A stretch of DNA of 64,000 nucleotides, taken from assembly GCA_965219455.1 (NCBI GenBank), contig OZ244744.1, positions 2,112,001 to 2,176,000 on the forward strand. Direction: 5' to 3'. The number at the start of each line of letters is the position of its first letter. The stretch's first letter is position 1. Below are positions 3,071 through 64,000 of the stretch, one piece after another. The translations under genes and the position numbers were made by a program. The notes under the pieces were generated by a model. It was given only the letters and a program-made list of their open reading frames with translations, did no database searches and was not told the origin of the DNA. The DNA is from Candidatus Latescibacterota bacterium (GTDB lineage Bacteria > Latescibacterota > UBA2968 > GCA-2709665).

Positions 3071-3901
3071 GTGGTTTTGGCGGTACAATCGAATCTGTTT
3101 CACCGGATCTTAGCGGCGGCGGTCTTTGGGCCGCTTTTTCTGGTTCTGTTTTGGTTTGGTGGAATTCCGCTCCTCATTGGCGTGTGCCTGGTGGCTGCGG
3201 GTGGGACGTGGGAGTACTGCCAGATGCAGAAAAAGCGAGGGCTGCATCCCTGGACGGGAGTCGGGGTTGCGGCCTCTTCGGTTTGGTGCCTGTGGTTGAA
3301 CGGGTTCGGAGAGCGATTCTGGCTGATTCCAGCCACAGTGATTCTGCTTGTTCTGCTAACCCTGGCGCTGGGACAACGGGAGGGTCGATTCCGGCTGGCT
3401 GACGCCGAGGCGACCTTTGTCGGTACGTGTTATATCGGGTTGCTGTCCGCTTTTGCGCTGCTGGTACGGAACTATTCCGGATTTGAGACGGCTGAAGCCG
3501 GCGCCGCGTGGTTTGCCATTGTGGTACTCCTGGGAATCTGGGGCACGGATATCCTCGCCTATTTTGCGGGGCGTCTTTGGGGTAAACGACATCCTTTCCC
3601 GCTGATCAGTCCGGGTAAGACGGGCGCGGGTTTCGCGGGCGGAATCGTCGGGGCGATGGCGGTAATGTCCACCGGGGGCCACATCTTGAAGTTATACACG
3701 CTTCCAGCGGGTATCGCGCTGGGGATCGTGGTGGGCGTTAGCGCTCTATGGGGAGACCTGGTCGAATCGATGATCAAACGGAACGCGGGGGTCAAAGATG
3801 CTTCCGCCCTGATTCCCGGGCACGGCGGCGTGCTGGACCGATTCGACAGTTTTCTATTTGTGTACCCTGTGGTTTATCTTTACCTACGCGTGTTTCATTA
3901 G
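3071..3901 (+). CDS. cdsA: Phosphatidate cytidylyltransferase (start approximate)
   Basis: Multi-TM; DILAYFAG, ISPGKT, GDLVESMIKR..GVKD..LIPGHGGVLDRFDS; syntenic with uppS and dxr. Confidence 0.94.
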   Translation: MVLAVQSNLFHRILAAAVFGPLFLVLFWFGGIPLLIGVCLVAAGGTWEYCQMQKKRGLHPWTGVGVAASSVWCLWLNGFGERFWLIPATVILLVLLTLALGQREGRFRLADAEATFVGTCYIGLLSAFALLVRNYSGFETAEAGAAWFAIVVLLGIWGTDILAYFAGRLWGKRHPFPLISPGKTGAGFAGGIVGAMAVMSTGGHILKLYTLPAGIALGIVVGVSALWGDLVESMIKRNAGVKDASALIPGHGGVLDRFDSFLFVYPVVYLYLRVFH

Positions 3902-3963
3902 ACGTTCGGGCATACCGGAAACCTGCATTTACATTCACCCGTTGACTTGAACTGGATCTGTGT

Positions 3964-5121
3964 ATGAAGCGAGTTGCGCTGCTTGGGTCCACGGGATCTA
4001 TCGGCACCAGTACGCTGGACGTACTGGCCGGTCTGCCTGAACGATTCGAAGTGGAATGCCTCAGCGCCGGACGCAATATCGACCTGCTCTGCGAGCAGGT
4101 GACGCGTTTCCGGCCGAAACGGGTCTGCGTGGGCGAAGAGAACGCGAAAGACGCAGGCGAAAGGCGTGAGTTGCAGGGTGTTGAGGTGTTACACGGTTCT
4201 GACGGACTCCTCGCGTTGGCGACGGATTCGGAAGTGGATCTGGTAATCAACGGGCTGGTGGCGGGGGTAGGACTGCGGCCAACCCTGGCGGCGGTCGAGG
4301 CAGGCAAGGACGTCGCCATCGCAAATAAGGAAACACTGGTCGTAGCGGGGCATCTGGTAACAGATCTCGCGGCGCGGAACGGCGTGCGGTTGATTCCGCT
4401 GGATAGCGAACTGACACCTTTGTGGCAGAGCCTGCAGGAAGTCCCGCAGCAGCAGGTGACGCGCATCGTGCTTTCCGCCTCCGGAGGTCCGTTTTTCAAG
4501 ATGTCATTGGACGAGATGGCCCGTGCGACACCCGACGAGGCCCTCCGTCATCCGACGTGGCGGATGGGACCGAAGATCACCATCGATTCCGCTACCTTGA
4601 TGAACAAGGGTTTCGAGGTGATCGAGTCCCACTGGTTTCTAGGGCTCGACATCGAACAGATCGATGTCGTGATTCACCGGCAGTCGATCGTGCATTGTCT
4701 TGTGGAGTTCCTGGATGGAAGCCTGACCGCGCATTTGAGCCGGCCCGATATGCGACTGCCTATTCAGCAGGCGTTGACCCATCCGGACCGGCTGCCGACA
4801 GCCGTTCCTTCGCTGGACCTGGTGGCTACGGGTTCGTTGAGTTTCGATGCGCCGGACCTGGAGCGATTTCCGTGCCTTGCGCTGGCATATGAAGTGGGCC
4901 GTGCGGGTGGTACGGCGGCGGCGGTACTGAATGCAGCCAACGAGATTGGTGTCTATTCCTTTCTGGAAGGGCGCATCGGGTTTCTGGATGTACCGGACGT
5001 CGTACGCCGGACCCTCGATGCGCATATCAACGCATCAGGCTCGAATCTCGATGCGGTGTTTGAAGCGGACCGCTGGGGGCGAGAGAAGGCAAGGGAGTTT
5101 GCCGCACGCCTGGAAACCTAG
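3964..5121 (+). CDS. dxr: 1-deoxy-D-xylulose-5-phosphate reductoisomerase
   Basis: LGSTGSIG, ANKETLV, ASGGPF, HPTWRMGPKITIDSATLMNKG, PDMRLPI, NAANE. Confidence 0.96.
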   Translation: MKRVALLGSTGSIGTSTLDVLAGLPERFEVECLSAGRNIDLLCEQVTRFRPKRVCVGEENAKDAGERRELQGVEVLHGSDGLLALATDSEVDLVINGLVAGVGLRPTLAAVEAGKDVAIANKETLVVAGHLVTDLAARNGVRLIPLDSELTPLWQSLQEVPQQQVTRIVLSASGGPFFKMSLDEMARATPDEALRHPTWRMGPKITIDSATLMNKGFEVIESHWFLGLDIEQIDVVIHRQSIVHCLVEFLDGSLTAHLSRPDMRLPIQQALTHPDRLPTAVPSLDLVATGSLSFDAPDLERFPCLALAYEVGRAGGTAAAVLNAANEIGVYSFLEGRIGFLDVPDVVRRTLDAHINASGSNLDAVFEADRWGREKAREFAARLET

Positions 5122-52150: not shown

Positions 52151-53854
52151 CTATTCTTCGTCCTTAAACCTTCGGTACATAAATCGTAAAGCCTCTCTCG
52201 CCTTCTCACGGACCGGATAAGGGTCTCCGCGATAATATCCGTCGTGTTGGCTTATAGAGTCCAGTAGAGCATATACGAATGAGTCATTGATATATCTCAA
52301 AGCCGTGATTGCGTCAATTCGATAATGATGAAATTCTGAATGAGCGAATTCTACAAGGGCTGTTTTGAGACGTTCTTGCTTTTCGTTGTCGCGCAAAAAC
52401 GGTTGGTTGGCGTTCAACATTGCCTCGAATACTTTCGCGGCTTCTTTTTGGACGTGAGGTTTACGAGTATCACGGAGTATATACAGAAGCGGTTCGAACG
52501 AAGGTTCTCCAATATCCATTAAACCTTGTACTGCTGGCTTCATTGAGATATTCTGAATAAAGAATGGAACAAAACGAGGGTCTTTCTGCCAACCGGTCAT
52601 TAGCAGTAATTTCCATTCAATCAAACCTTCGTGATCTTGAAATTTCAGTTTTTCGCCAGTCTCACTGTCTGTGATGTCACCGGTAACAGGGTCTACATCC
52701 AGAAAATAGCGATCGATGATATAGAGTAGCATCGTGCGGGCATTTTCTGGCCAGGGCTCCCGTGGTAAGCGATACAGGCGATATACCATACTTTCCATAA
52801 CCAGAATATTCCCTTTAATGAGATCCTCGGCCCACTCAGCATATTCTGAATCCATAGGGAATTCATTGCCGATTGTTTCTACTTCATCGTAAATATTGAT
52901 CGATCGGGCATAGCTGTGCAAATAAGTGATCTCATGCACTATTATCATTTTGTTTCGATAGGTATCGATCGAAATTGGATTCCAGTATTTGGGATCCATA
53001 AAACCTATGTCCAATGGTTCCCGCTGTATAAATCCGTGCTCCGCAAAGGTGATTGCTGTCACGCGTCTCGGTTCCTCGGTTAATTCAAGGATTCGTCCTT
53101 TGTGGTCAACTGTTATTTGAGAATGTTCTTCTTGTCGGCGGATAGTTCTCGAAGGACTATTGGGTGTTACGCTGAGGACTTCAAAGTCATGAACTTTAAT
53201 ATCCCAATTCTGGCCAAAGGTGCTTATAAGGATTTCGTCATTACCATCTTTGTCTACATCACCGAGGTTTAACCCACCCCAGTAGATTCCGGATTGATTT
53301 GACAATTGCGTGACCGTGATTGCGAAATCTTCGGTAATATTCGACCATCGGCCGATCTTTAATGTGGCTTTATTAATGCCATCATTTTCGGCAAAAACAA
53401 CCTCGTCCTGACCATCACCATTAATGTCACCCATTGCCAGGAGACCGATCACGTTATCACGAGGAATCAATAACTTCTGGTATTCATATTTCCCCTTACT
53501 TAAGTAAATTCCAAGTAGATATTGCGTTGTTTTCATATCCTTAAGCCCAAATCCTGCGACCACGAAATCTAACTGGCCGTCTCCATTTAAGTCGCCGGTA
53601 TCAAAACTACGGGCCGCAACAAATGTCTCGTGATCTTCCCAGACTTTCTCTACTCTACTATGTGGTTTAAATGCATTAAACAGCGCCAATCTTGTCGGCC
53701 AGAAACAAATCAACCTTACTGTGTCAGGATCTATAATCTCGATAGTTGCTTTATCTGTTCCGTCGAATTCGTACCATCTGAAAAACCTTGAGTCAGCAAA
53801 TAAGGGTTGTGTGAGAATCAATAAAGTGACAGAAATTATGAGTGAATTATTCAT
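52151..53854 (-). CDS. Secreted FG-GAP/VCBS repeat protein with C-terminal HEAT-like repeats
   Basis: Signal MNNSLII..LFA; GDLNGDGQLD, GDINGDGQDE, GDVDKDGNDE; HEAT-like RIDAITAL, VREKAREAL; AT-rich. Confidence 0.78.
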   Translation of the reverse strand: MNNSLIISVTLLILTQPLFADSRFFRWYEFDGTDKATIEIIDPDTVRLICFWPTRLALFNAFKPHSRVEKVWEDHETFVAARSFDTGDLNGDGQLDFVVAGFGLKDMKTTQYLLGIYLSKGKYEYQKLLIPRDNVIGLLAMGDINGDGQDEVVFAENDGINKATLKIGRWSNITEDFAITVTQLSNQSGIYWGGLNLGDVDKDGNDEILISTFGQNWDIKVHDFEVLSVTPNSPSRTIRRQEEHSQITVDHKGRILELTEEPRRVTAITFAEHGFIQREPLDIGFMDPKYWNPISIDTYRNKMIIVHEITYLHSYARSINIYDEVETIGNEFPMDSEYAEWAEDLIKGNILVMESMVYRLYRLPREPWPENARTMLLYIIDRYFLDVDPVTGDITDSETGEKLKFQDHEGLIEWKLLLMTGWQKDPRFVPFFIQNISMKPAVQGLMDIGEPSFEPLLYILRDTRKPHVQKEAAKVFEAMLNANQPFLRDNEKQERLKTALVEFAHSEFHHYRIDAITALRYINDSFVYALLDSISQHDGYYRGDPYPVREKAREALRFMYRRFKDEE

Positions 53855-54007
53855 AGTGGCCTGACTGCTGTCGGAATGTCGATTGGCAGAGAATTCTGGA
53901 CTTGAACATAGCGTTGGATTCTGAAATAACACCGGCGATTAAGACCCCCCTACGTGCCAATGGAGTGAGACGATGTTCCCTGCAAGTTTAGGGCGTCCGC
54001 AAAAATA

Positions 54008-55699
54008 TCACCCCCCGTATTTGGAGATGAGATCCACAGCGGCCTCATCTCCTTTTTTCTGCGCCCAGGCGAGGGGCGTGGCCCATTCGGCGCCGGCCAG
54101 CGTGGGATCGGCCCCGCGTTCGAGATAGAGACGGGCCAGATCGCATTTGCCCCATCTGACCGCCCAGCCAAGCGGTGTGGACTGAAGGAGTTCGTCGATA
54201 ACGTTAAGATCGGCGCCGTGGTCCAGAAGGATGATGGCAAAGGCGATCCGTTCGGGTTCGGTCATAATCGGTTCTCCCCAGACAACGCCGCAGGCCGCCA
54301 GATGATGAGTAAGCCGGTACCCGAAACGACCCACGAGATTGGGGTTTACGCCGTAGTCCAGAATCATTCGAAAGATTTCGGGATAGACCGTACGATCGAA
54401 GTCGCGGAATTTGCGGTGGGGATTCGTCCGCCAGAGTCGAAGGGGCTGTTCGAGCAGGCTGAACCAGCGGCTGTCATCGGGTTCCCAATCGAGTTGCCGC
54501 AGGCACATCCCCACAATATTCGGGTCGCCGCCGCATCCTGCGGCCCAGAGCAGCTTCTCCGCGATCGACGGGTCGTTGTGGAGGGCAACGGCAGCGGCCG
54601 ACGTCTCGGCTTCGAGTCCGGCAGTGGTGTGATCCAGGATCCCGCCGTATCGAAACAGCAGTCCCTTCATCCGGTCGTCGCGGTTGTTGTACGCCGCGCC
54701 CACGGGATTCGCGCTGGCATAGATGCTGGCGTTGGGATCCGCGCCGTTCTCGAGCAGGAGTTCGGCGATTTCATAACGGGAATTGCCCGCCGCATTGGAC
54801 AGGGGCTCGCCCCACGAATACGGCCTGGATTCGTAGTGCTGCAACTGATGCCTGTCGTCCGGGTGCAGACCCAGGTCGAGCAGCAGGCGTACTATGTCGA
54901 TATCGTCGTTCTGGACGGCGATCTGCAGAAGCCCGTCCCGCTCGCTGTCGTTGGACTGAAAGCGTTCCGGATGCGCCCTTGCGAACGCGCGAACGAAGTC
55001 GAAGTCGCCAAGTGCGACCGCGGATTCGATCGATTGCTCGCATCCCGCCTGCAGCAGGATGCCCGTGCAGATCAGACACCCTTCGTTGAGCGGCCTGTTG
55101 CGCCCGCGTACATTGAGGACCGCGCCGTCGAGGGGCGATTGGCCCTCGGGCGTGAGATGCGTGATATCGGCGCCCCGATCGAGCAGTTCGCGAACCAGCC
55201 GGTAACGGCCGTGCGACGCGGCCGCGTGAATCACGCTGCCGCCATTTCGATGACACGCATCCAGCAGTTCGGGCTGACGGTCCAGGATGTCGAGCGCGGC
55301 CTTCTCCCGCCCCTCCCGGACGGCTTCGAACAGCGCGTCGTTTTCTTCGGTGATGGTAATATTCTTGCAGGCGGCCAGCTTGCGTTTTTCGTCTTCCGCC
55401 CTGATCACGTGGACGATTTCGTCCAGGCCGCGTTCCTGCGCCATCGTAAACGCGCCGGTGGCGTCGCGGTGGGGGTAGATGCCCGAATTGTGGTCCGCGC
55501 CCGCTTCCATGAGAACCCGGACCGCATCGGCGTGCCGGTTCATCACCGCGTAGTGAATCGCGCGGTGTTCGTTGTTCTCAGCCATGTGCACGTTCACCAG
55601 ATCGGGCTGCTCGCCAAGTATCTGCTTAATCCGCGAGACATCGCCGCTCCCTGCCGCCTTACAAAGATCTGCGACCCTGTAGGATCCGTTGCCGGCCAT
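54008..55699 (-). CDS. Ankyrin repeat protein
   Basis: Many ANK repeats (AIHYA..VRVLMEAGAD, IHAAA..LLDRGAD, TPLGWA..YLERGADP). Confidence 0.92.
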   Translation of the reverse strand: MAGNGSYRVADLCKAAGSGDVSRIKQILGEQPDLVNVHMAENNEHRAIHYAVMNRHADAVRVLMEAGADHNSGIYPHRDATGAFTMAQERGLDEIVHVIRAEDEKRKLAACKNITITEENDALFEAVREGREKAALDILDRQPELLDACHRNGGSVIHAAASHGRYRLVRELLDRGADITHLTPEGQSPLDGAVLNVRGRNRPLNEGCLICTGILLQAGCEQSIESAVALGDFDFVRAFARAHPERFQSNDSERDGLLQIAVQNDDIDIVRLLLDLGLHPDDRHQLQHYESRPYSWGEPLSNAAGNSRYEIAELLLENGADPNASIYASANPVGAAYNNRDDRMKGLLFRYGGILDHTTAGLEAETSAAAVALHNDPSIAEKLLWAAGCGGDPNIVGMCLRQLDWEPDDSRWFSLLEQPLRLWRTNPHRKFRDFDRTVYPEIFRMILDYGVNPNLVGRFGYRLTHHLAACGVVWGEPIMTEPERIAFAIILLDHGADLNVIDELLQSTPLGWAVRWGKCDLARLYLERGADPTLAGAEWATPLAWAQKKGDEAAVDLISKYGG

Positions 55700-55812
55700 C
55701 TCTGTTCCTTTCCGGGTTTGCACGTCATCCAATTCCGATAGCGAAGCCGTCACCCCCCGGCGTATAAACCTGAACTCGAATTCCCGCAACCGGAGGCGTC
55801 ACCGCGAATAGT

Positions 55813-59259: not shown

Positions 59260-60048
59260 TCAGGACTCCCAGACAAAAACCTTTTTGTAGTAGACGATCT
59301 CAAATCCGTTGCGTTCGAGGTTGCCCAACGATGTTTTCAGCATTACGAGGGTCTCGCTGCAGGCCACACGGCATCCCAGGTCCGCGGCACGATTCAGGCG
59401 GGCTCGTATAAGTGAATTCTGTCCGCCTTTTCTTCTGTGCGCCTCGGCGGTTCCTGCCCACCCGAGATAGGCGAAGTCGCCGTGATGGGCGAGTATCGCG
59501 GCGCTGACAGGCGTACCCGCGTCATACGCCAGGAAATGGTCGAATCCGGGTTGATCGACACTTTCAAGGAAAAACGTGCAGGGCCACGGATCGAATATGC
59601 GGAGAATCGCATCCTTGTAATTCTCAACCTCATGCCCCGATACGCGGCACACGTCAAGATGGGTCTGGAAAGGCGCCACTTTTTCGACGGGACGAATCAG
59701 CGTCGGATACCGGGTGCCTCCAAATGGTTTCAGACGGTTGCCCCGGAGCCACTCGATAATTTCCTCTTCCTGGGGATTCGGGCTCAGCCAGAAAAAAAAC
59801 CGTTCGGTCCCCGATTGCCTGAATACATCCAGTATGTTCAGGAGATCCGTCCGGGAAACCGTGGTCCCGCACCCGAAGAAAAATACGCCGTTTCGATTCG
59901 CCGATGGATACGGCGATGATGCGGAAGGAGGATCGACCGTGACGATGGCGTTTCCGACGATCTTATGGATCTTCGAACCGGGCGGCGCACAGCCGAGTTC
60001 CTTGTGCTTGATCTCCGTCAGAAGTTGCACGATTTCATCGGGTCTCAT
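59260..60048 (-). CDS. GNAT-family acetyltransferase
   Basis: [20 protein letters not shown] (motif A), S..NLER.GF. Confidence 0.85.
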
Positions 60049-60369
60049 GTTGGGGTCGAGAACGATCTCTCGTCCAGATGGGGTTTCAGAAACTGTCCCG
60101 TAAATGACTGCCGAACCGCGGCAACCGCCGCCGGCGGGCCGGTCGCGACAACGCGTGCGCCGTGCACCCCGGGTCCGGGGCCCATTTCGATGATATGATC
60201 GGCGGCGCGTATGGTATCCTCGTCGTGCTCGACGACGATGACCGTGTTCCCGATGTCTCGGAGTTGCCGCATGGTGCTGATCATCTTGGCGTTGTCTTTC
60301 GGGTGCAAACCGATGCTGGGCTCATCGAGTACGTACAACATGCCCATGAGCCCCGAGCCGATCTGCGAG
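60045..60369 (-). pseudogene. uvrA: uvrA remnant
   Basis: [24 protein letters not shown]......[25 protein letters not shown] (NBD1-type), ending [11 protein letters not shown]. Confidence 0.85.
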
Positions 60370-60607
60370 GAACGGTTTGCGCCTGGATGTTGACGTCATC
60401 TTCGCAGAGTGTAACATGGCCTTGTTTTTGTCTATCCTGCATGATGATCCACAGGTCGATATCCGAGTTCTCCCAGACTTCGTCGTAGGACAGACTGCCA
60501 AAGAGTATCGCCGCGAGTACCGTTCGGTCTTTTTCAAGTTTTCCGACCAGAGACAATAGTGCTTTCCGGTAGCGCCTCCGGATGACTTCCGGCTCGAAAT
60601 GAGACAT
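60365..60607 (-). pseudogene. Truncated nucleotidyltransferase-domain protein fused out of frame to the uvrA remnant
   Basis: AILFGSL......SDIDL motif. RBS GGAG before ATG 60607. Similarity switches to uvrA at CCTCGCAG (~60363-60370). Confidence 0.7.
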
Positions 60608-60644
60608 GGTAACTCCACCATATAGTGTATGGGAAGGAGCACGT

Positions 60645-60673
60645 GATATACGCAGGTTCGAATCAGGTGTCAA
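60645..60673 (-). promoter_or_regulatory. Sigma70-type promoter for the NTase/uvrA/GNAT unit
   Basis: Minus strand TTGACA-17 bp-TATATC. Confidence 0.55.
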
Positions 60674-61274
60674 GGTCAATTACCGGAAAGCGCAGGCGTC
60701 CGCGGGTGGGCGGGGAACGACCACTGGAATGCCGGATAACAGGCGAAGAAACCGAGTTTTCACACGACTGTTACGTGGGGTTGGAAAACCGGAGTATTCC
60801 GGCTCCCCGCCGTAACCTGAGCGAGATTTTTAAACCGCTAAACGACGTCGTACACATTCCTGGCGCAAAACCACAAAACCGGGCGATCGACACACCGATC
60901 GCCCGGTTCAATTTGCGAAGATCGCTCGGTCCGTTTCGCTAACGGCATTTACGGGATTGCCGCGCGCGAAGCCAGCCAGATTTCCGCGAAATTCCGCCTA
61001 AAGACCCCGCAGAATTCTCCCTCCTCACCGGTTTTGCCCAAGTAAAACGTGAATGCTCTGAAACAAGCGGATTGGTTGTTCGCGGTTCCTGATACGATTC
61101 GGCCGAACGTAGGGGTACTACCTGCAAGTTAAACGCTCTCGCAATTCTTGGATAGAAGTGTAATCTTTCGATTAGATCCCGCGCGAACGACCATGGGTCC
61201 GCACAAAATTCGGAAATTTGAGTCACGTTGTATTCTCAGTTGTATTCTCATGTATATTGAAGAGTTTAACGATA

Positions 61275-61661
61275 TCACCCCGTCGGCATCAATACCAACT
61301 TACTGAGAAGAGCCAGTTTCCTCGCGATGCTCTGCCGTTCACTCTTGTTCGCCGGGAACGGTGTGATATTGGCATGTAGTTCATGAGGCTGTGTATCCGG
61401 AATGACGTTGAGGCTGTTTTCATAAACATGCTGTGCCAAAAAATCCGCCCTTGCTTTTATTCTTCGTTCCTCGGTTTCAACGTAATCTCTGCCAATTGAC
61501 CAGACTTCGCGGTCAGCGAGGGATGAAATGCGATACACCGAAATTTGGTCGCTGTTTGATGGAGGAATAAATGCACCGAATTTTACGACCCTGTTCATAA
61601 CTGAAAATTGTCTTCTATAGAATATATATCGGGCAATTTTTTCACCTGGTGAAACATCCAT
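61275..61661 (-). CDS. Hypothetical protein, putative ADP-ribosyltransferase-like fold
   Basis: IARYI ... AFIP ... ISVYR ... HANI spacing; third gene of an AT-rich operon. Confidence 0.65.
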   Translation of the reverse strand: MDVSPGEKIARYIFYRRQFSVMNRVVKFGAFIPPSNSDQISVYRISSLADREVWSIGRDYVETEERRIKARADFLAQHVYENSLNVIPDTQPHELHANITPFPANKSERQSIARKLALLSKLVLMPTG

Positions 61662-61674
61662 ATAAAGTTCTCAA

Positions 61675-62319
61675 TTAGACGAGGAGGCTTGACAATGTTA
61701 CAATAATACCCCGCAACAAGGCAGTATCTGATAATGTACAGATTCCTTCGACTTTGCGTTTGTCGTCGAAAAAAGCACCGTAGATGACAAGATTATCTCC
61801 ATATAGTCCCATCGACACTATCCCATTCTCTGGTCGCCACTCGAAGCCAAGACTGCCATCTTCTGCCCAGCCGATGTCGGGCATGGGGACATTGTAACGA
61901 GAAAGCAGATCTAGTAAAGAATCCGCGTCATCATATGCGGAATCAGGGATAGGATCAATCTCATTACTCAAAGCCAAGGCTTCCATGGCCTCTTGGCGTG
62001 TTTTCTCTATTTGCCGTTTTGCATCATCCAATTTTCGCTGTGGAGCGTAGGTCGGCAAATGGAAATACAGGTTAGATGCATCCCCTTCAAGCAAATCTCT
62101 ATCGCTTGCCTTTGGTAGATTATAGGCCTGAGTTTGTAGATTTCGTGGGTATTCATAGTGTGATGAACGTGTTCGATGTTCGTCATTGACCGCAACGACC
62201 CACCCCTCAGTGGTGTGTAGACTTCTCGGTTCATCAATCCGACTGCCGTGAAACCAGTCATAGACGTATTTAGCCTCAAGGCTTGAGTGGTCTTCGGCCT
62301 GACGTGCGAGGGTTATCAT
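61675..62319 (-). CDS. Hypothetical protein with C-terminal PI..A...A..L....P.P.....DGS..FEW domain
   Basis: TAATG overlap with the upstream gene, RBS GGGGAGG. Confidence 0.7.
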   Translation of the reverse strand: MITLARQAEDHSSLEAKYVYDWFHGSRIDEPRSLHTTEGWVVAVNDEHRTRSSHYEYPRNLQTQAYNLPKASDRDLLEGDASNLYFHLPTYAPQRKLDDAKRQIEKTRQEAMEALALSNEIDPIPDSAYDDADSLLDLLSRYNVPMPDIGWAEDGSLGFEWRPENGIVSMGLYGDNLVIYGAFFDDKRKVEGICTLSDTALLRGIIVTLSSLLV

Positions 62320-63137
62320 TATTTCCTCCCCCAGGTGCGAGTTTGGATGTCTTCCGTAAACAATCCAGTGAATTTCCCACGAATACAGCCATGTGCCGAC
62401 GTAAACCACGTTATCATCACGTTGTCTTCCCCAGCCTGTGGAAAGCCACGCATTGTAAAATCCGTTTGTAAAGTTTGTTTTTGATCAGATACCCGTACCC
62501 TATGACTAACGGCAAGATGTAACCTTCCGTTTAAGTCCTCTATCGGAAATGATGTCCGCAAGATCACAGATTCAGCACCTGACCAAAATGAACTCGATGG
62601 CTCAGACTTAATGAACAGCTTATATACTTCCCCAACGTCGTTAAGAGTATTCCAGCCATCACCACGCAATAATTGATCAATATAGGTCAATTCATATTGT
62701 AGTGGAACTACCTCGCCGACTTCCATTGATCTAACTATCTCCTGAAAGCGACTATAGAACTTTGCAAACCTTTCAAATATCGCAGTGAATCCAGGATATT
62801 TCTGATCTGGCTCTGTCTTGCGCCAGTTAAACGTAAATCGATCCCGCTGAATTTGAATGATGTGATTTTGTTGTTCGTGTATGAACCAAATTCGTGCGAA
62901 GTTTGGGACATTTTTAAAATGCAACTCAGTCTCTTGGTTTGGGTGATCTAGATTTTCGATTGTAGGCATCACAGGCGGTTGTTCCACGACCTCTGAGAAC
63001 CCCACCTTTTTGAATTCCTCCCACATCACTCCTAGATGGGGAGCCAGCAACATATCGAGAGACTTGAAGAGTACACTCAATACCACCTCATCTACCGGTG
63101 GTCGTACGTAATCGAGCTCATTGTGCACGGAGTCCAT
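62319..63137 (-). CDS. TIGR04255-family protein
   Basis: PPVDEVVLSVLF, RIWF, IQIQRDRFTFNWRK, YPGF, ELTYID. RBS GAGAGG. Confidence 0.85.
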   Translation of the reverse strand: MDSVHNELDYVRPPVDEVVLSVLFKSLDMLLAPHLGVMWEEFKKVGFSEVVEQPPVMPTIENLDHPNQETELHFKNVPNFARIWFIHEQQNHIIQIQRDRFTFNWRKTEPDQKYPGFTAIFERFAKFYSRFQEIVRSMEVGEVVPLQYELTYIDQLLRGDGWNTLNDVGEVYKLFIKSEPSSSFWSGAESVILRTSFPIEDLNGRLHLAVSHRVRVSDQKQTLQTDFTMRGFPQAGEDNVMITWFTSAHGCIRGKFTGLFTEDIQTRTWGRK

Positions 63138-63807
63138 GAGGTGTCACCTCTCAAGATCTTAAACACGTACCCGATCTAATTGTGATAACGCCTGATTGAA
63201 ATGTATAGTTTCACTAAATGCGATGCGTATGCTTGATCTATTATGAGACGTTACCTTTTTGTACATTACATCCTCAATGCTCGGAAATTTCCATGTCGCC
63301 TATATGTAAATTAACATATGGAAGCGTCCAAACAAAGCCAAATAGCGATATCTCCGATATCAGTCGCAACGATCAGGTCGTCTGCAGGTATACCCTCGAA
63401 CGGGGAGAATCCGCGGCGCGATATTAAACGACGTCAAATGGAAACTATATGCAGTCAATGGTCAGATCCGATTGATGCTTGATCATCGGGTCTGGGCAGT
63501 TGTACTATGCAGCTTCTCTTTCGTGGAGTAGTTCAAACATTGATCCGACAAATACGTTCGACGCGGTATCCAATATTACCATATTTCATGGTAATTCTAT
63601 GTGCGAGGAGTGTCTGACACTATAGAAGGGTGATCCGAAACGCAAGCTTTTGAATATCATTGGAAGTTCCGATCGAATTCATAGCCAAGAACTGATGCAG
63701 TATTTCACTATTCCTTTCGACAGCAACTTCAAACGACATAGATTGGCGTGCGGATCGTACTCGAGTTCCGGCTGCCTCGCTTCGGCAGTATCAGGACATC
63801 TGTTCCC

Positions 63808-63836
63808 TTGACGAATCCGAACATTTCCAGTATATT
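63808..63836 (+). promoter_or_regulatory. Sigma70-type promoter
   Basis: TTGACG-17 bp-TATATT, 45 bp before ATG 63882. Confidence 0.55.
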
Positions 63837-63881
63837 TTAGCTGTATCTCGAAAAGGCTTACCCTCTCCAGGGACGGTAGAG

Positions 63882-64000
63882 ATGTTTTATTCCTCCAGAC
63901 GGATTCATCCTGTTGTCGTATTCGCTCTGGCGATATTCGCGGCCTACCTGGCGGTATTCTTACTTGCCGCCTTCCCCGGTCACGATCACGATCAACAATG
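63882..64000 (+). CDS. Partial small membrane protein with His-rich segment (DUF2946-like), runs off the window
   Basis: MFYSSRRIHPVVVFALAIFAAYLAVFLLAAFPGHDHDQQ..., translated by hand. Confidence 0.5.
   Translation, partial: MFYSSRRIHPVVVFALAIFAAYLAVFLLAAFPGHDHDQQ

Follow-up and report, generated by a model that had tools for sequence, protein, structure and literature searches.

A TIGR04255-led three-gene cassette in a sponge-associated Latescibacterota bacterium as a candidate tripartite toxin-antitoxin-type module

Whether three small genes that lie packed together in a bacterial genome act as one system, and to what end, is the question raised by a cassette found in an uncultured sponge-associated bacterium of the Candidatus Latescibacterota. 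The cassette lies in a stretch of 64,000 nucleotides (assembly GCA_965219455.1, contig OZ244744.1, positions 2,112,001 to 2,176,000), hereafter the window, and consists of three tightly packed minus-strand genes at window positions 61275-63137, i.e., g1 (62319-63137), which encodes a TIGR04255-family protein of 272 amino acids (aa), g2 (61675-62319; 214 aa), and g3 (61275-61661; 128 aa). An initial annotation had proposed a sensor-antitoxin-toxin module analogous to the toxin-antitoxin-chaperone (TAC) systems of phage defence. We favour, with a probability of roughly 0.5, a tripartite module of the toxin-antitoxin or abortive-defence type, in which g3 would be the effector, g2 its neutraliser, and g1 an accessory, sensor or stabiliser component that acts through an N-terminal extension of g2. 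The observations on which this reading builds are the gene layout, two modelled folds, rules of co-occurrence among the genes, an insertion/deletion polymorphism, and the position of relatives inside type I restriction-modification operons; genomes and loci are identified below by our own labels (G and L numbers).

The fold of g3 and its pairing with g2

The product of g3 matched no Pfam family (E ≤1), no NCBIfam family and no PHROG, and its single match among the PADLOC models was to PDC-M32B, with an E-value of 0.011. A word-indexed search identified 40 close relatives with 41-98% identity, and a search of 1.84 billion cluster representatives with the g3 profile yielded 2,525 matches at E ≤0.001, including 1,407 at E ≤1e-10; among the 150 matches listed, nearly all were free-standing proteins of 101-194 aa without a delivery domain. 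Searches by tblastn against plasmids and against phages gave no match, the viral structures in BFVD gave none at E ≤0.001, and sequence searches of solved structures with g3, g1 and the profiles A1, A2, and A4 returned nothing below E 0.1. In 76 divergent g3 relatives, S41 (61539-61541) and H96 (61374-61376) were invariant, and R11 (61629-61631), F31, P33, V42, W54, V61, R71 (61449-61451), D73, L84, and A97 were conserved in at least 90%; none of the 76 matched a Pfam family, including the ADP-ribosyltransferase (ART), RES, DarT and ParT families, at E ≤0.01.

An AlphaFold2 model of g3, built from an alignment of 35 sequences, reached a predicted local distance difference test score (pLDDT) of 96.3 and a predicted template modelling score (pTM) of 0.89. 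In it, strand 8-13 carries R11, strand 40-44 carries S41, strand 70-75 both R71 and D73, and strand 96-100 H96, so that the conserved polar residues occupy strands 1, 2, 3 and 5, a conservation that resembles that of an enzyme. A Foldseek search of the PDB returned nothing at E ≤0.001, with KptA/Tpt1, AvrPphF ORF2 and NarE among its better rows. An exhaustive VIA search of 48,161 chains, which is independent of Foldseek, gave a best Z of 7.1, and at least 40 of its 50 rows are, judging by entry titles, ART-fold proteins; these rows comprise KptA/Tpt1, AvrPphF, Tse2, CopC/OspC3, Tne2, Scabin, DarT and Tre toxins as well as PltA, SPN, pertussis, cholera-type and diphtheria toxins, RES/MbcT, Arr, SidE and NatT. 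Many of these matches (DarT, RES, MbcT, Tne2, Tse2, and the Tre toxins) are toxins with antidotes. In a second look at the top 1000 Foldseek rows, the 11 best were all NAD lobes of KptA/Tpt1, with Z of 6.9-7.9; in the best of them (Z 7.9, root-mean-square deviation 2.4 Å over 89 residues), residues 1-124 of the model align with residues 88-180 of the KptA/Tpt1 chain. Because the match list is uniform, though single scores are middling, we regard as convincing the assignment of the modelled g3 to the ART fold, with the KptA/Tpt1 NAD lobe as its closest structural match. An ART-like fold with an Arg on the first strand, a Ser-Val on the second and a late His had been anticipated in the initial annotation, and the model and the fold searches agree with it.

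Separated from g3 by 13 bases, g2 combines a variable N-terminal part with a conserved C-terminal domain of about 115 aa (residues 97-214; 61678-62031, minus strand), which we propose as the domain that neutralises g3. This domain is 45-75% identical across 167 matches that differ in their N-termini, and many relatives of about 137 aa consist of it alone. Pfam assigned no family to g2 and only scattered single matches to 50 of its relatives, PHROGs gave no useful match for the cassette proteins, and the ESM Atlas returned for the C-terminal domain unnamed clusters, some of them viral, which are leads only. Among the same 50 relatives, 40 matched the PADLOC model PDLC04576 for PDC-M32A at E ≤0.1 (best E 4.7e-6) and 13 matched PDLC04575, a second PDC-M32A model; the g2 domain resembles the C-terminal part of PDC-M32A, corresponding to only positions ~250-370 of a 375-position profile. 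PDC-M32B, in turn, was matched by 24 of 35 close g3 relatives (best E 3.3e-4) and by 13 of 76 distant ones (best E 3.6e-7), and its model PDLC04579 found nothing at E ≤0.1 in the genome to which the window belongs. By profile comparison, the g2-g3 pair thus appears to be a remote relative of PDC-M32, and no other PADLOC model matches the cassette proteins. Since PADLOC already holds remote relatives of both genes under this name, the pair is less novel than the initial annotation had supposed; the link to g1 is unaffected.

The two genes are also paired in their genomic arrangement. All 30 g3-centred Poribacteria loci (including L108, which lies at a contig start) have the g2 domain immediately 5' of g3, and these loci were found through g3 and hence are unselected for g2; the arrangement is the same in all four further g3-centred loci and in the window. 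In each case g2 precedes g3, adjacent and co-directional, as in the A-then-B layout of PDC-M32. Conversely, 40 of 58 distinct copies of the g2 domain have g3 downstream, the remaining 18 being tandem copies, locus edges or orphans. Decayed loci keep g2: in genome G058 (L006 2857-5364 and 6001-6383; L006 and L009 are the same place), an insert of about 1.65 kb splits g1 and g3 is frameshifted, with g2 intact; L015 has a truncated g1 and no g3, and L012 and L013 have g2 only. Among these loci, g2 is found without g3, but g3 is not found without g2, which is the pattern expected of an antidote and a poison, if g3 does harm on its own. Elsewhere in the window's genome, a free-standing 123-aa open reading frame (ORF) at G000:C1:1211742-1212101 (L057 1510-1881) matches PDC-M32A positions 250-369 of 375 with E 2.4e-33; it has an S24-peptidase-like ORF upstream and no adjoining g3-like gene. 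In Poribacteria (e.g., G265:C2:1258971-1267197), g2-like and g3-like genes form tandem arrays with up to five g2 matches per genome, and many g3 matches contain stop codons or are fragmentary.

g1, the N-terminal extension of g2 and the wider TIGR04255 family

That g1 belongs to TIGR04255, as the initial annotation had recognised, is clear from a full-length NCBIfam match (E 2.3e-17; 63.7 bits with a cut-off of 30) that covers residues 10-267 and profile positions 2-250 of 252. TIGR04255 is a curated, sporadically distributed family without a known role, and a full-text search of an accessible collection of papers turned up none that names it. No other NCBIfam family and no Pfam family (E ≤1), SecB included, matched g1, and the ESM Atlas returned TIGR04255 clusters only; among 120 clusters listed, members of its subfamily share 53-91% identity. 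The AlphaFold2 model of g1 (pLDDT 81.5, pTM 0.83) shows two repeats of a strand, a helix, three or four strands and a long helix; by sequence comparison, the internal repeat scored E 0.44. The two Foldseek matches at E ≤0.001 were both TATA-binding protein (TBP) (best E 1.6e-4, probability 1.00), with low TM-scores of 0.24-0.25. VIA returned the AdoMetDC-like domain of spermine synthase (Z 8.3), McsB (Z 8.2) and arginine-kinase catalytic domains (Z 7.6), the latter two over 181-184 residues, and TBP (Z 6.5), as well as Bet v1/polyketide-cyclase proteins, the BamC N-domain and domain 4 of phosphoglucomutase. We read the model as a duplicated TBP-like or helix-grip sheet, a fold that gives no specific function. 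The initial annotation had raised the question of a SecB-like duplicated sheet, for which the sequence searches gave no match; SecB is also absent from the fold-search lists, an absence that by itself decides nothing.

What connects g1 with g2 is the length of the g2 N-terminus. In 13 distinct g2 copies with g1 upstream, 49-138 aa (median 73) precede the conserved domain, as compared to a median of 22 aa in 45 copies without g1, 44 of which have 46 aa or fewer; these counts come from related genomes, and the Poribacteria loci among them were chosen via g2. In the window, the extension comprises residues 1-96 (62032-62319, minus strand); such extensions are variable in sequence and present only with g1 encoded upstream. 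The single exception, L016, has a g2 that begins with the g1 N-terminus, and a deletion therefore appears to have fused the start of g1 to g2. Many g2 forms of 153-159 aa (P0069, P0071, P0075, P0077, P0081, P0086, P0137, P0142, and P0149, together with locus L016) likewise open with about the first 17 residues of g1 (..KKLDFARPPV..). Judging from their sequences, these forms probably arose by a deletion in which both g1 and the g2 extension were lost.

Although variable, the extension has a recurrent element. The motif [LMIV]QTxx[YFW] (hereafter LQTxxY), represented in the window by LQTQAY (g2 residues 61-66; 62122-62139, minus strand), occurs in the long extensions of 10 of 13 g1-linked loci; in the g2 family at large, it is found in 24 of 34 proteins with an N-terminal region of at least 75 aa versus 2 of 68 with a shorter one. 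One of the alignments made (A5) was selected for the motif. The sequence motifs quoted in the initial annotation are all present (YVYDWFH, HYEY, LYFHLPTY and DGSLGFEW in g2; ARY, AFIPP, SVYR and HANI in g3), but the conserved element of the tail is LQTxxY rather than the aromatic stretches that had been singled out. g1 itself carries an invariant TLQTDF segment.

TIGR04255 genes reach well beyond relatives of this cassette: of 168 genomes from the phylum to which the window belongs, 45 carry the family. In about 28 of 30 TIGR04255 loci of the phylum, the gene is followed on the same strand by a middle ORF (83-312 aa), which abuts or overlaps it, and a third ORF (113-234 aa), the partners being varied; only L071, which lies at a contig end, and L077 depart from this layout. 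Among these 30 loci, only L080 and L084 match the g2 profile (E ~1e-4) and the g3 profile (5e-30 and 7e-29), and their TIGR04255 protein is of a different subfamily than g1. Inspected by eye, the third genes include small proteins that resemble g3 (R...S[VC][DN]W...H[SG]xI), HEPN-like proteins and proteins with a 'GDIL...QxCD' pattern; within the set L065-L093, we noted the HEPN-like genes at L086/L087 and the 'GDIL...QxCD' genes at L065-L072, L081, and L089. The window's genome itself holds a second TIGR04255-led trio of overlapping genes (G000:C1:1928089-1929830; L053 1495-3225; 251, 198, and 135 aa), of which the middle protein matches PDC-M32A with E 9.6e-5 and the third shows R..SCDW..HSLI motifs. 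With the g2 and g3 profiles, L053 and L078 scored E 0.03-0.66, which is not significant, though the aligned motifs agree in register.

A tentative and rather doubtful extrapolation would place TIGR04255 as the unchanging centre of many otherwise polymorphic three-gene modules that form a class so far unrecognised. In these, a TBP-like sheet protein would hold the LQ-type tail motif of a variable antidote that guards a variable poison, a second and independently evolved solution to the chaperone-addicted antitoxin known from SecB-TAC systems. On this view, the LQTxxY tail may mimic the TLQTDF strand of g1 and dock by strand exchange or addition. The poisons would then, with the same reserve, comprise Arg-Ser-His proteins of the ART fold, HEPN-like proteins, 'GDIL...QxCD' proteins and other kinds.

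Proposed mechanism and its alternatives in genomic context

Relatives of the cassette were found in metagenome-assembled genomes of Latescibacterota and Poribacteria; the trio recurs as such in other genomes, consistent with the expectation in the initial annotation that its genes would be conserved together. Of the 168 genomes from the window's phylum, 11 carry the g2 domain, including 4 of 15 of its genus; among 176 Poribacteria genomes, 110 carry it, frequently as several copies in tandem; a wide g3 profile found matches in 80 of the 176, and a metagenome scan for g2 gave only three loci. At L005 and L012, cassette relatives sit between hsdS and hsdM, and, with the hsd proteins of L005 as probes, 26 of 30 g2-centred and 14 of 30 g3-centred Poribacteria loci have hsdS or hsdM within 1.5 kb, as do 3 of 10 loci from the phylum of the window; relatives thus do occur in defence contexts, in line with the initial annotation. 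In L005 (Poribacteria), positions 3808-4972 also hold a 252-aa ORF without a family match and a PIN-domain ORF (E 1.1e-8); as these lie between hsdS and a g2-g2-g3 array, at least two small modules appear to sit inside one type I restriction-modification operon.

Binding, toxicity, chemistry and trigger we infer as follows. A minimal ART-fold effector with an Arg-Ser-His signature, g3 would use NAD+ to modify a cellular target or would consume NAD+; given that its nearest fold match is the KptA/Tpt1 NAD lobe, the end of a nucleic acid is the foremost candidate for that target. The conserved C-terminal domain of g2 would bind and neutralise g3, and the N-terminal extension with LQTxxY would serve as a handle for g1, which would hold, stabilise or monitor g2. 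If g1 were lost or diverted, e.g., during phage infection, g3 would be freed. Should this module prove real, TIGR04255 would gain a function and a testable partner rule, the PADLOC candidate PDC-M32 would gain a mechanistic hypothesis, and the g3 family, with its 2,525 or more cluster representatives and no Pfam match in the 76 tested, would gain a fold and a putative active site; three-part modules of this sort would come into view as a broader class that has so far gone unrecognised. All parts of the cassette are small.

A different account of the same loci, rather unlikely in our view, is that g2-g3 is an ordinary two-gene pair of the PDC-M32 type, with g1 an unlinked hitch-hiker and the long extension a matter of lineage history. 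Most pairs do lack g1, which is present in 6 of 30 g3-centred loci and upstream of 13 of 58 g2 copies, the many short g2 forms opening with the g1 N-terminus indicate that the pair can outlast a deletion of g1, and the correlation between g1 and the extension may reflect few events; yet g1 and the extension were gained or lost together in two phyla, the stop of g1 overlaps the start of g2 in TAATG, another TIGR04255 subfamily heads a g2-like/g3-like pair at L080 and L084, and some 28 of 30 TIGR04255 loci share the three-gene layout. A separate doubt concerns chemistry, i.e., whether g3 has the ART fold without being an NAD transferase and acts by binding or by other chemistry through His96, Arg71 and Asp73, which we hold to be unlikely. 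Classical ART triads lie on strands 1, 2 and 5 and read R-S-E, H-Y-E/D/Q or H-H-hydrophobic; g3 departs from them with Arg-Ser-His, its strand-5 position being an invariant His rather than Glu, Asp or Gln, as judged by strand order in the model and not by superposition of side chains. This departure, the high rank of Tse2 and AvrPphF ORF2 among the fold matches (Z 6.3-6.5), and the lack of a Pfam ART match in all 76 relatives speak for such a non-transferase, whereas the best matches are true NAD-binding lobes and the invariant strand-2 Ser and the strand-1 Arg stand, in strand order, where R-S-E enzymes have their NAD-holding residues.

An effector-immunity cassette, with g3 as an exported toxin, g2 as its immunity protein and g1 as an export adaptor or chaperone, is very unlikely: g2 tandem copies (up to five matches per genome) do resemble arrays of orphan immunity genes, and the fold neighbours of g3 include secreted Tse2, Tne2 and Tre/Rhs toxins with immunity proteins, but the free-standing g3 relatives without a delivery domain described above, the order of antidote before toxin gene, as in toxin-antitoxin pairs, and the placement of relatives between hsdS and hsdM all fit poorly with export. 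Highly improbable, finally, is a housekeeping or repair role in which g3 would be a KptA/Tpt1-like enzyme for the phosphates of nucleic acids, regulated or targeted by the subunits g2 and g1; the nearest fold suggests it, whereas g3 aligns to residues 88-180 of the KptA/Tpt1 chain only, without the N-terminal lobe, and the cassette is patchy (11 of 168 genomes), low in GC, present or absent as an indel, often decayed, and embedded in restriction-modification operons.

Several points nevertheless weigh against the tripartite toxin-antitoxin-type module that we favour. The genomes behind the correlation of g1 with the extension are related, belong to two phyla and may stand for few independent events; loci L023-L052 were picked by way of g2; and g1 is highly conserved (55-60% identity) where the extension is very variable, which is odd for a large interface. 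All Z values for g3 are below 8, and the tool warns that such values may mean a common arrangement only; ART chemistry is not assured for g3, because a His replaces the classical third catalytic residue, and Tse2, with its ART-like fold, is not known to have ART activity. The window's g2 has no PADLOC match at E ≤1 and its g3 only one of E 0.011, and PDC-M32 is itself a candidate system. In addition, none of the 30 other TIGR04255 loci lies near hsd genes (by the L005 probes), and the window's own locus has no recognisable defence genes alongside.

The setting of the cassette in the window is that of an acquired or lost unit, in line with the acquired cassette of the initial annotation. GC content is 0.42-0.47 over ~61000-64000 and 0.54-0.65 in the flanks, and a low-GC segment of about 3.1 kb (~60713-63797, boundaries approximate) is present or absent as a unit: in the genus relative G057, the flanks (93% identical) meet within about 26 bases and this segment is missing, the empty site joining positions ~6713 and ~9797 of L002, and the low-GC stretch is therefore a real insertion/deletion polymorphism. 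The genus relatives G045, G051 and G058 hold the cassette. No flanking direct repeat was seen at the segment edges, and the segment contains no tRNA and no Rfam match. The packing noted at the outset is read directly in the sequence, with g1 stop and g2 start overlapping as TAATG at 62319; a GAGAGGTGA ribosome-binding site lies 5' of g1, and GGGAGG precedes the g2 ATG at 62319. While the mechanical ORF list has a longer g2 with a GTG start at 62409, the ATG is likelier because GGGAGG precedes it and 214-aa homologues begin with MITLARQ.

The long non-coding flanks are likewise as described, with no ORF with a family match in ~660 bases 5' of g1 or ~560 bases 3' of g3 inside the segment. The AT-rich stretch 5' of g1 (63138-63797) holds no ORF of at least 90 aa and presumably contains the promoter of the cassette, although scanning the segment for promoters and terminators gave consensus-level matches only and the promoter-like sites are weak. 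A terminator-like hairpin with a 15-pair stem and a T-rich tail (60876-60909, minus strand) lies ~370 bases 3' of g3; in the same consensus scan, terminator-like sites were no more numerous in the region than in shuffled sequence. With regard to expression, at least half of the stretch's sampled words were found in contigs of 16 sequencing runs, and any part of it in 20 runs from 8 studies. Two sponge metatranscriptome runs from a single study yielded short contigs without mismatch over 62173-62347 and 62686-62857, and one further run, whose RNA label is a guess, covers 62634-62853. These contigs hint only weakly at transcription of g1 and of the 5' part of g2, DNA carry-over being possible, and none of them spans 62319 with 31 bases on each side; stretches without coverage are uninformative.

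The nearest neighbours of the segment are a truncated nucleotidyltransferase ORF, an ABC permease, a Uma2-type protein, ankyrin proteins and a TonB-dependent receptor. Just beyond the indel, 60045-60679 (minus strand) holds two overlapping, truncated-looking ORFs; one of 132 aa has a nucleotidyltransferase (Polbeta) match over residues 47-87 only, and the other, a 100-aa piece without a Pfam match, reads to us like the C-terminal part of an ABC-ATPase or UvrA-type protein. A second low-GC stretch (42-44% GC) at 52151-53932 (minus strand) encodes a 593-aa ORF with DxNGDG-type repeats, and 54008-55789 (minus strand) encodes a 593-aa ankyrin-repeat protein (Pfam Ank_2, E 2.2e-31).

Comparison with known systems

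The NAD+-dependent 2'-phosphotransferases KptA/Tpt1 provide the best structural match to g3, all of which aligns with their C-terminal ART lobe (88-180) at 4-8% sequence identity, without the N-terminal nucleic-acid lobe. In KptA/Tpt1 that N-terminal lobe carries most of the catalytic Arg-His-Arg, a signature unlike the Arg-Ser-His of g3. DarTG, RES-Xre/MbcTA and ParST are small ART-fold toxins with an adjacent antidote, and their fold matches to g3 reach Z 3.8-5.0; g3 has no sequence match to their Pfam families, the cassette adds a third gene, and g2, unlike the antidotes of DarTG and RES-Xre, is by sequence neither a macrodomain nor an Xre-type protein. Tse2-Tsi2 (Z 6.3) and Tne2-Tni2 (Z 5.2-5.3) pair minimal ART-like toxin domains of a size like g3 with dedicated binders. 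Tse2 and Tne2 are exported effectors, whereas g3 has no delivery context, though no search aimed at secretion genes was made, and its putative antidote gene comes first.

PDC-M32 is one of 145 untested phage defence candidates identified by guilt-by-embedding (Payne et al., bioRxiv 10.1101/2024.01.29.577857); the accessible part of that text assigns it no fold or mechanism, and in a wider literature search it appeared only within lists of PADLOC matches. Like g2-g3, PDC-M32 is a two-gene A-then-B unit, with relatives of the two families matching A and B independently, and relatives of g2-g3 are embedded in type I restriction-modification operons, the sort of setting through which Payne et al. 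defined their candidates. Judged from the names of its hidden Markov models, PDC-M32 has no TIGR04255 component.

The closest parallel in design is to the TAC systems HigBAC (PMC11618068) and CmdTAC (bioRxiv 10.1101/2024.02.24.581848), which comprise three genes and have a reported role in phage defence. As in the cassette as we read it, the third component stays the same while the toxin-antitoxin pairs that go with it are exchanged, and the antitoxin has an extra segment only where the third component is present; the CmdTAC toxin is an ART, and g3 has a predicted ART fold. The occurrence of g1 only with extended forms of g2 is consistent with the TAC-like idea of the initial annotation. The parts differ, however: the third component of TAC is a SecB-family chaperone, whereas that of the cassette is a TIGR04255 protein with a TBP-like model and no SecB match by sequence; TIGR04255 comes first in the cassette and the chaperone last in TAC; and the TAC addiction extension (ChAD) is C-terminal, whereas the g2 extension is N-terminal with LQTxxY as its element and the g2 C-terminus ends with the conserved domain. 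The cassette is therefore not itself a TAC member; we put at about even odds that it works like a SecB-TAC system built from unrelated parts in reversed order, in which case a three-part 'guarded antitoxin' design would have arisen more than once.

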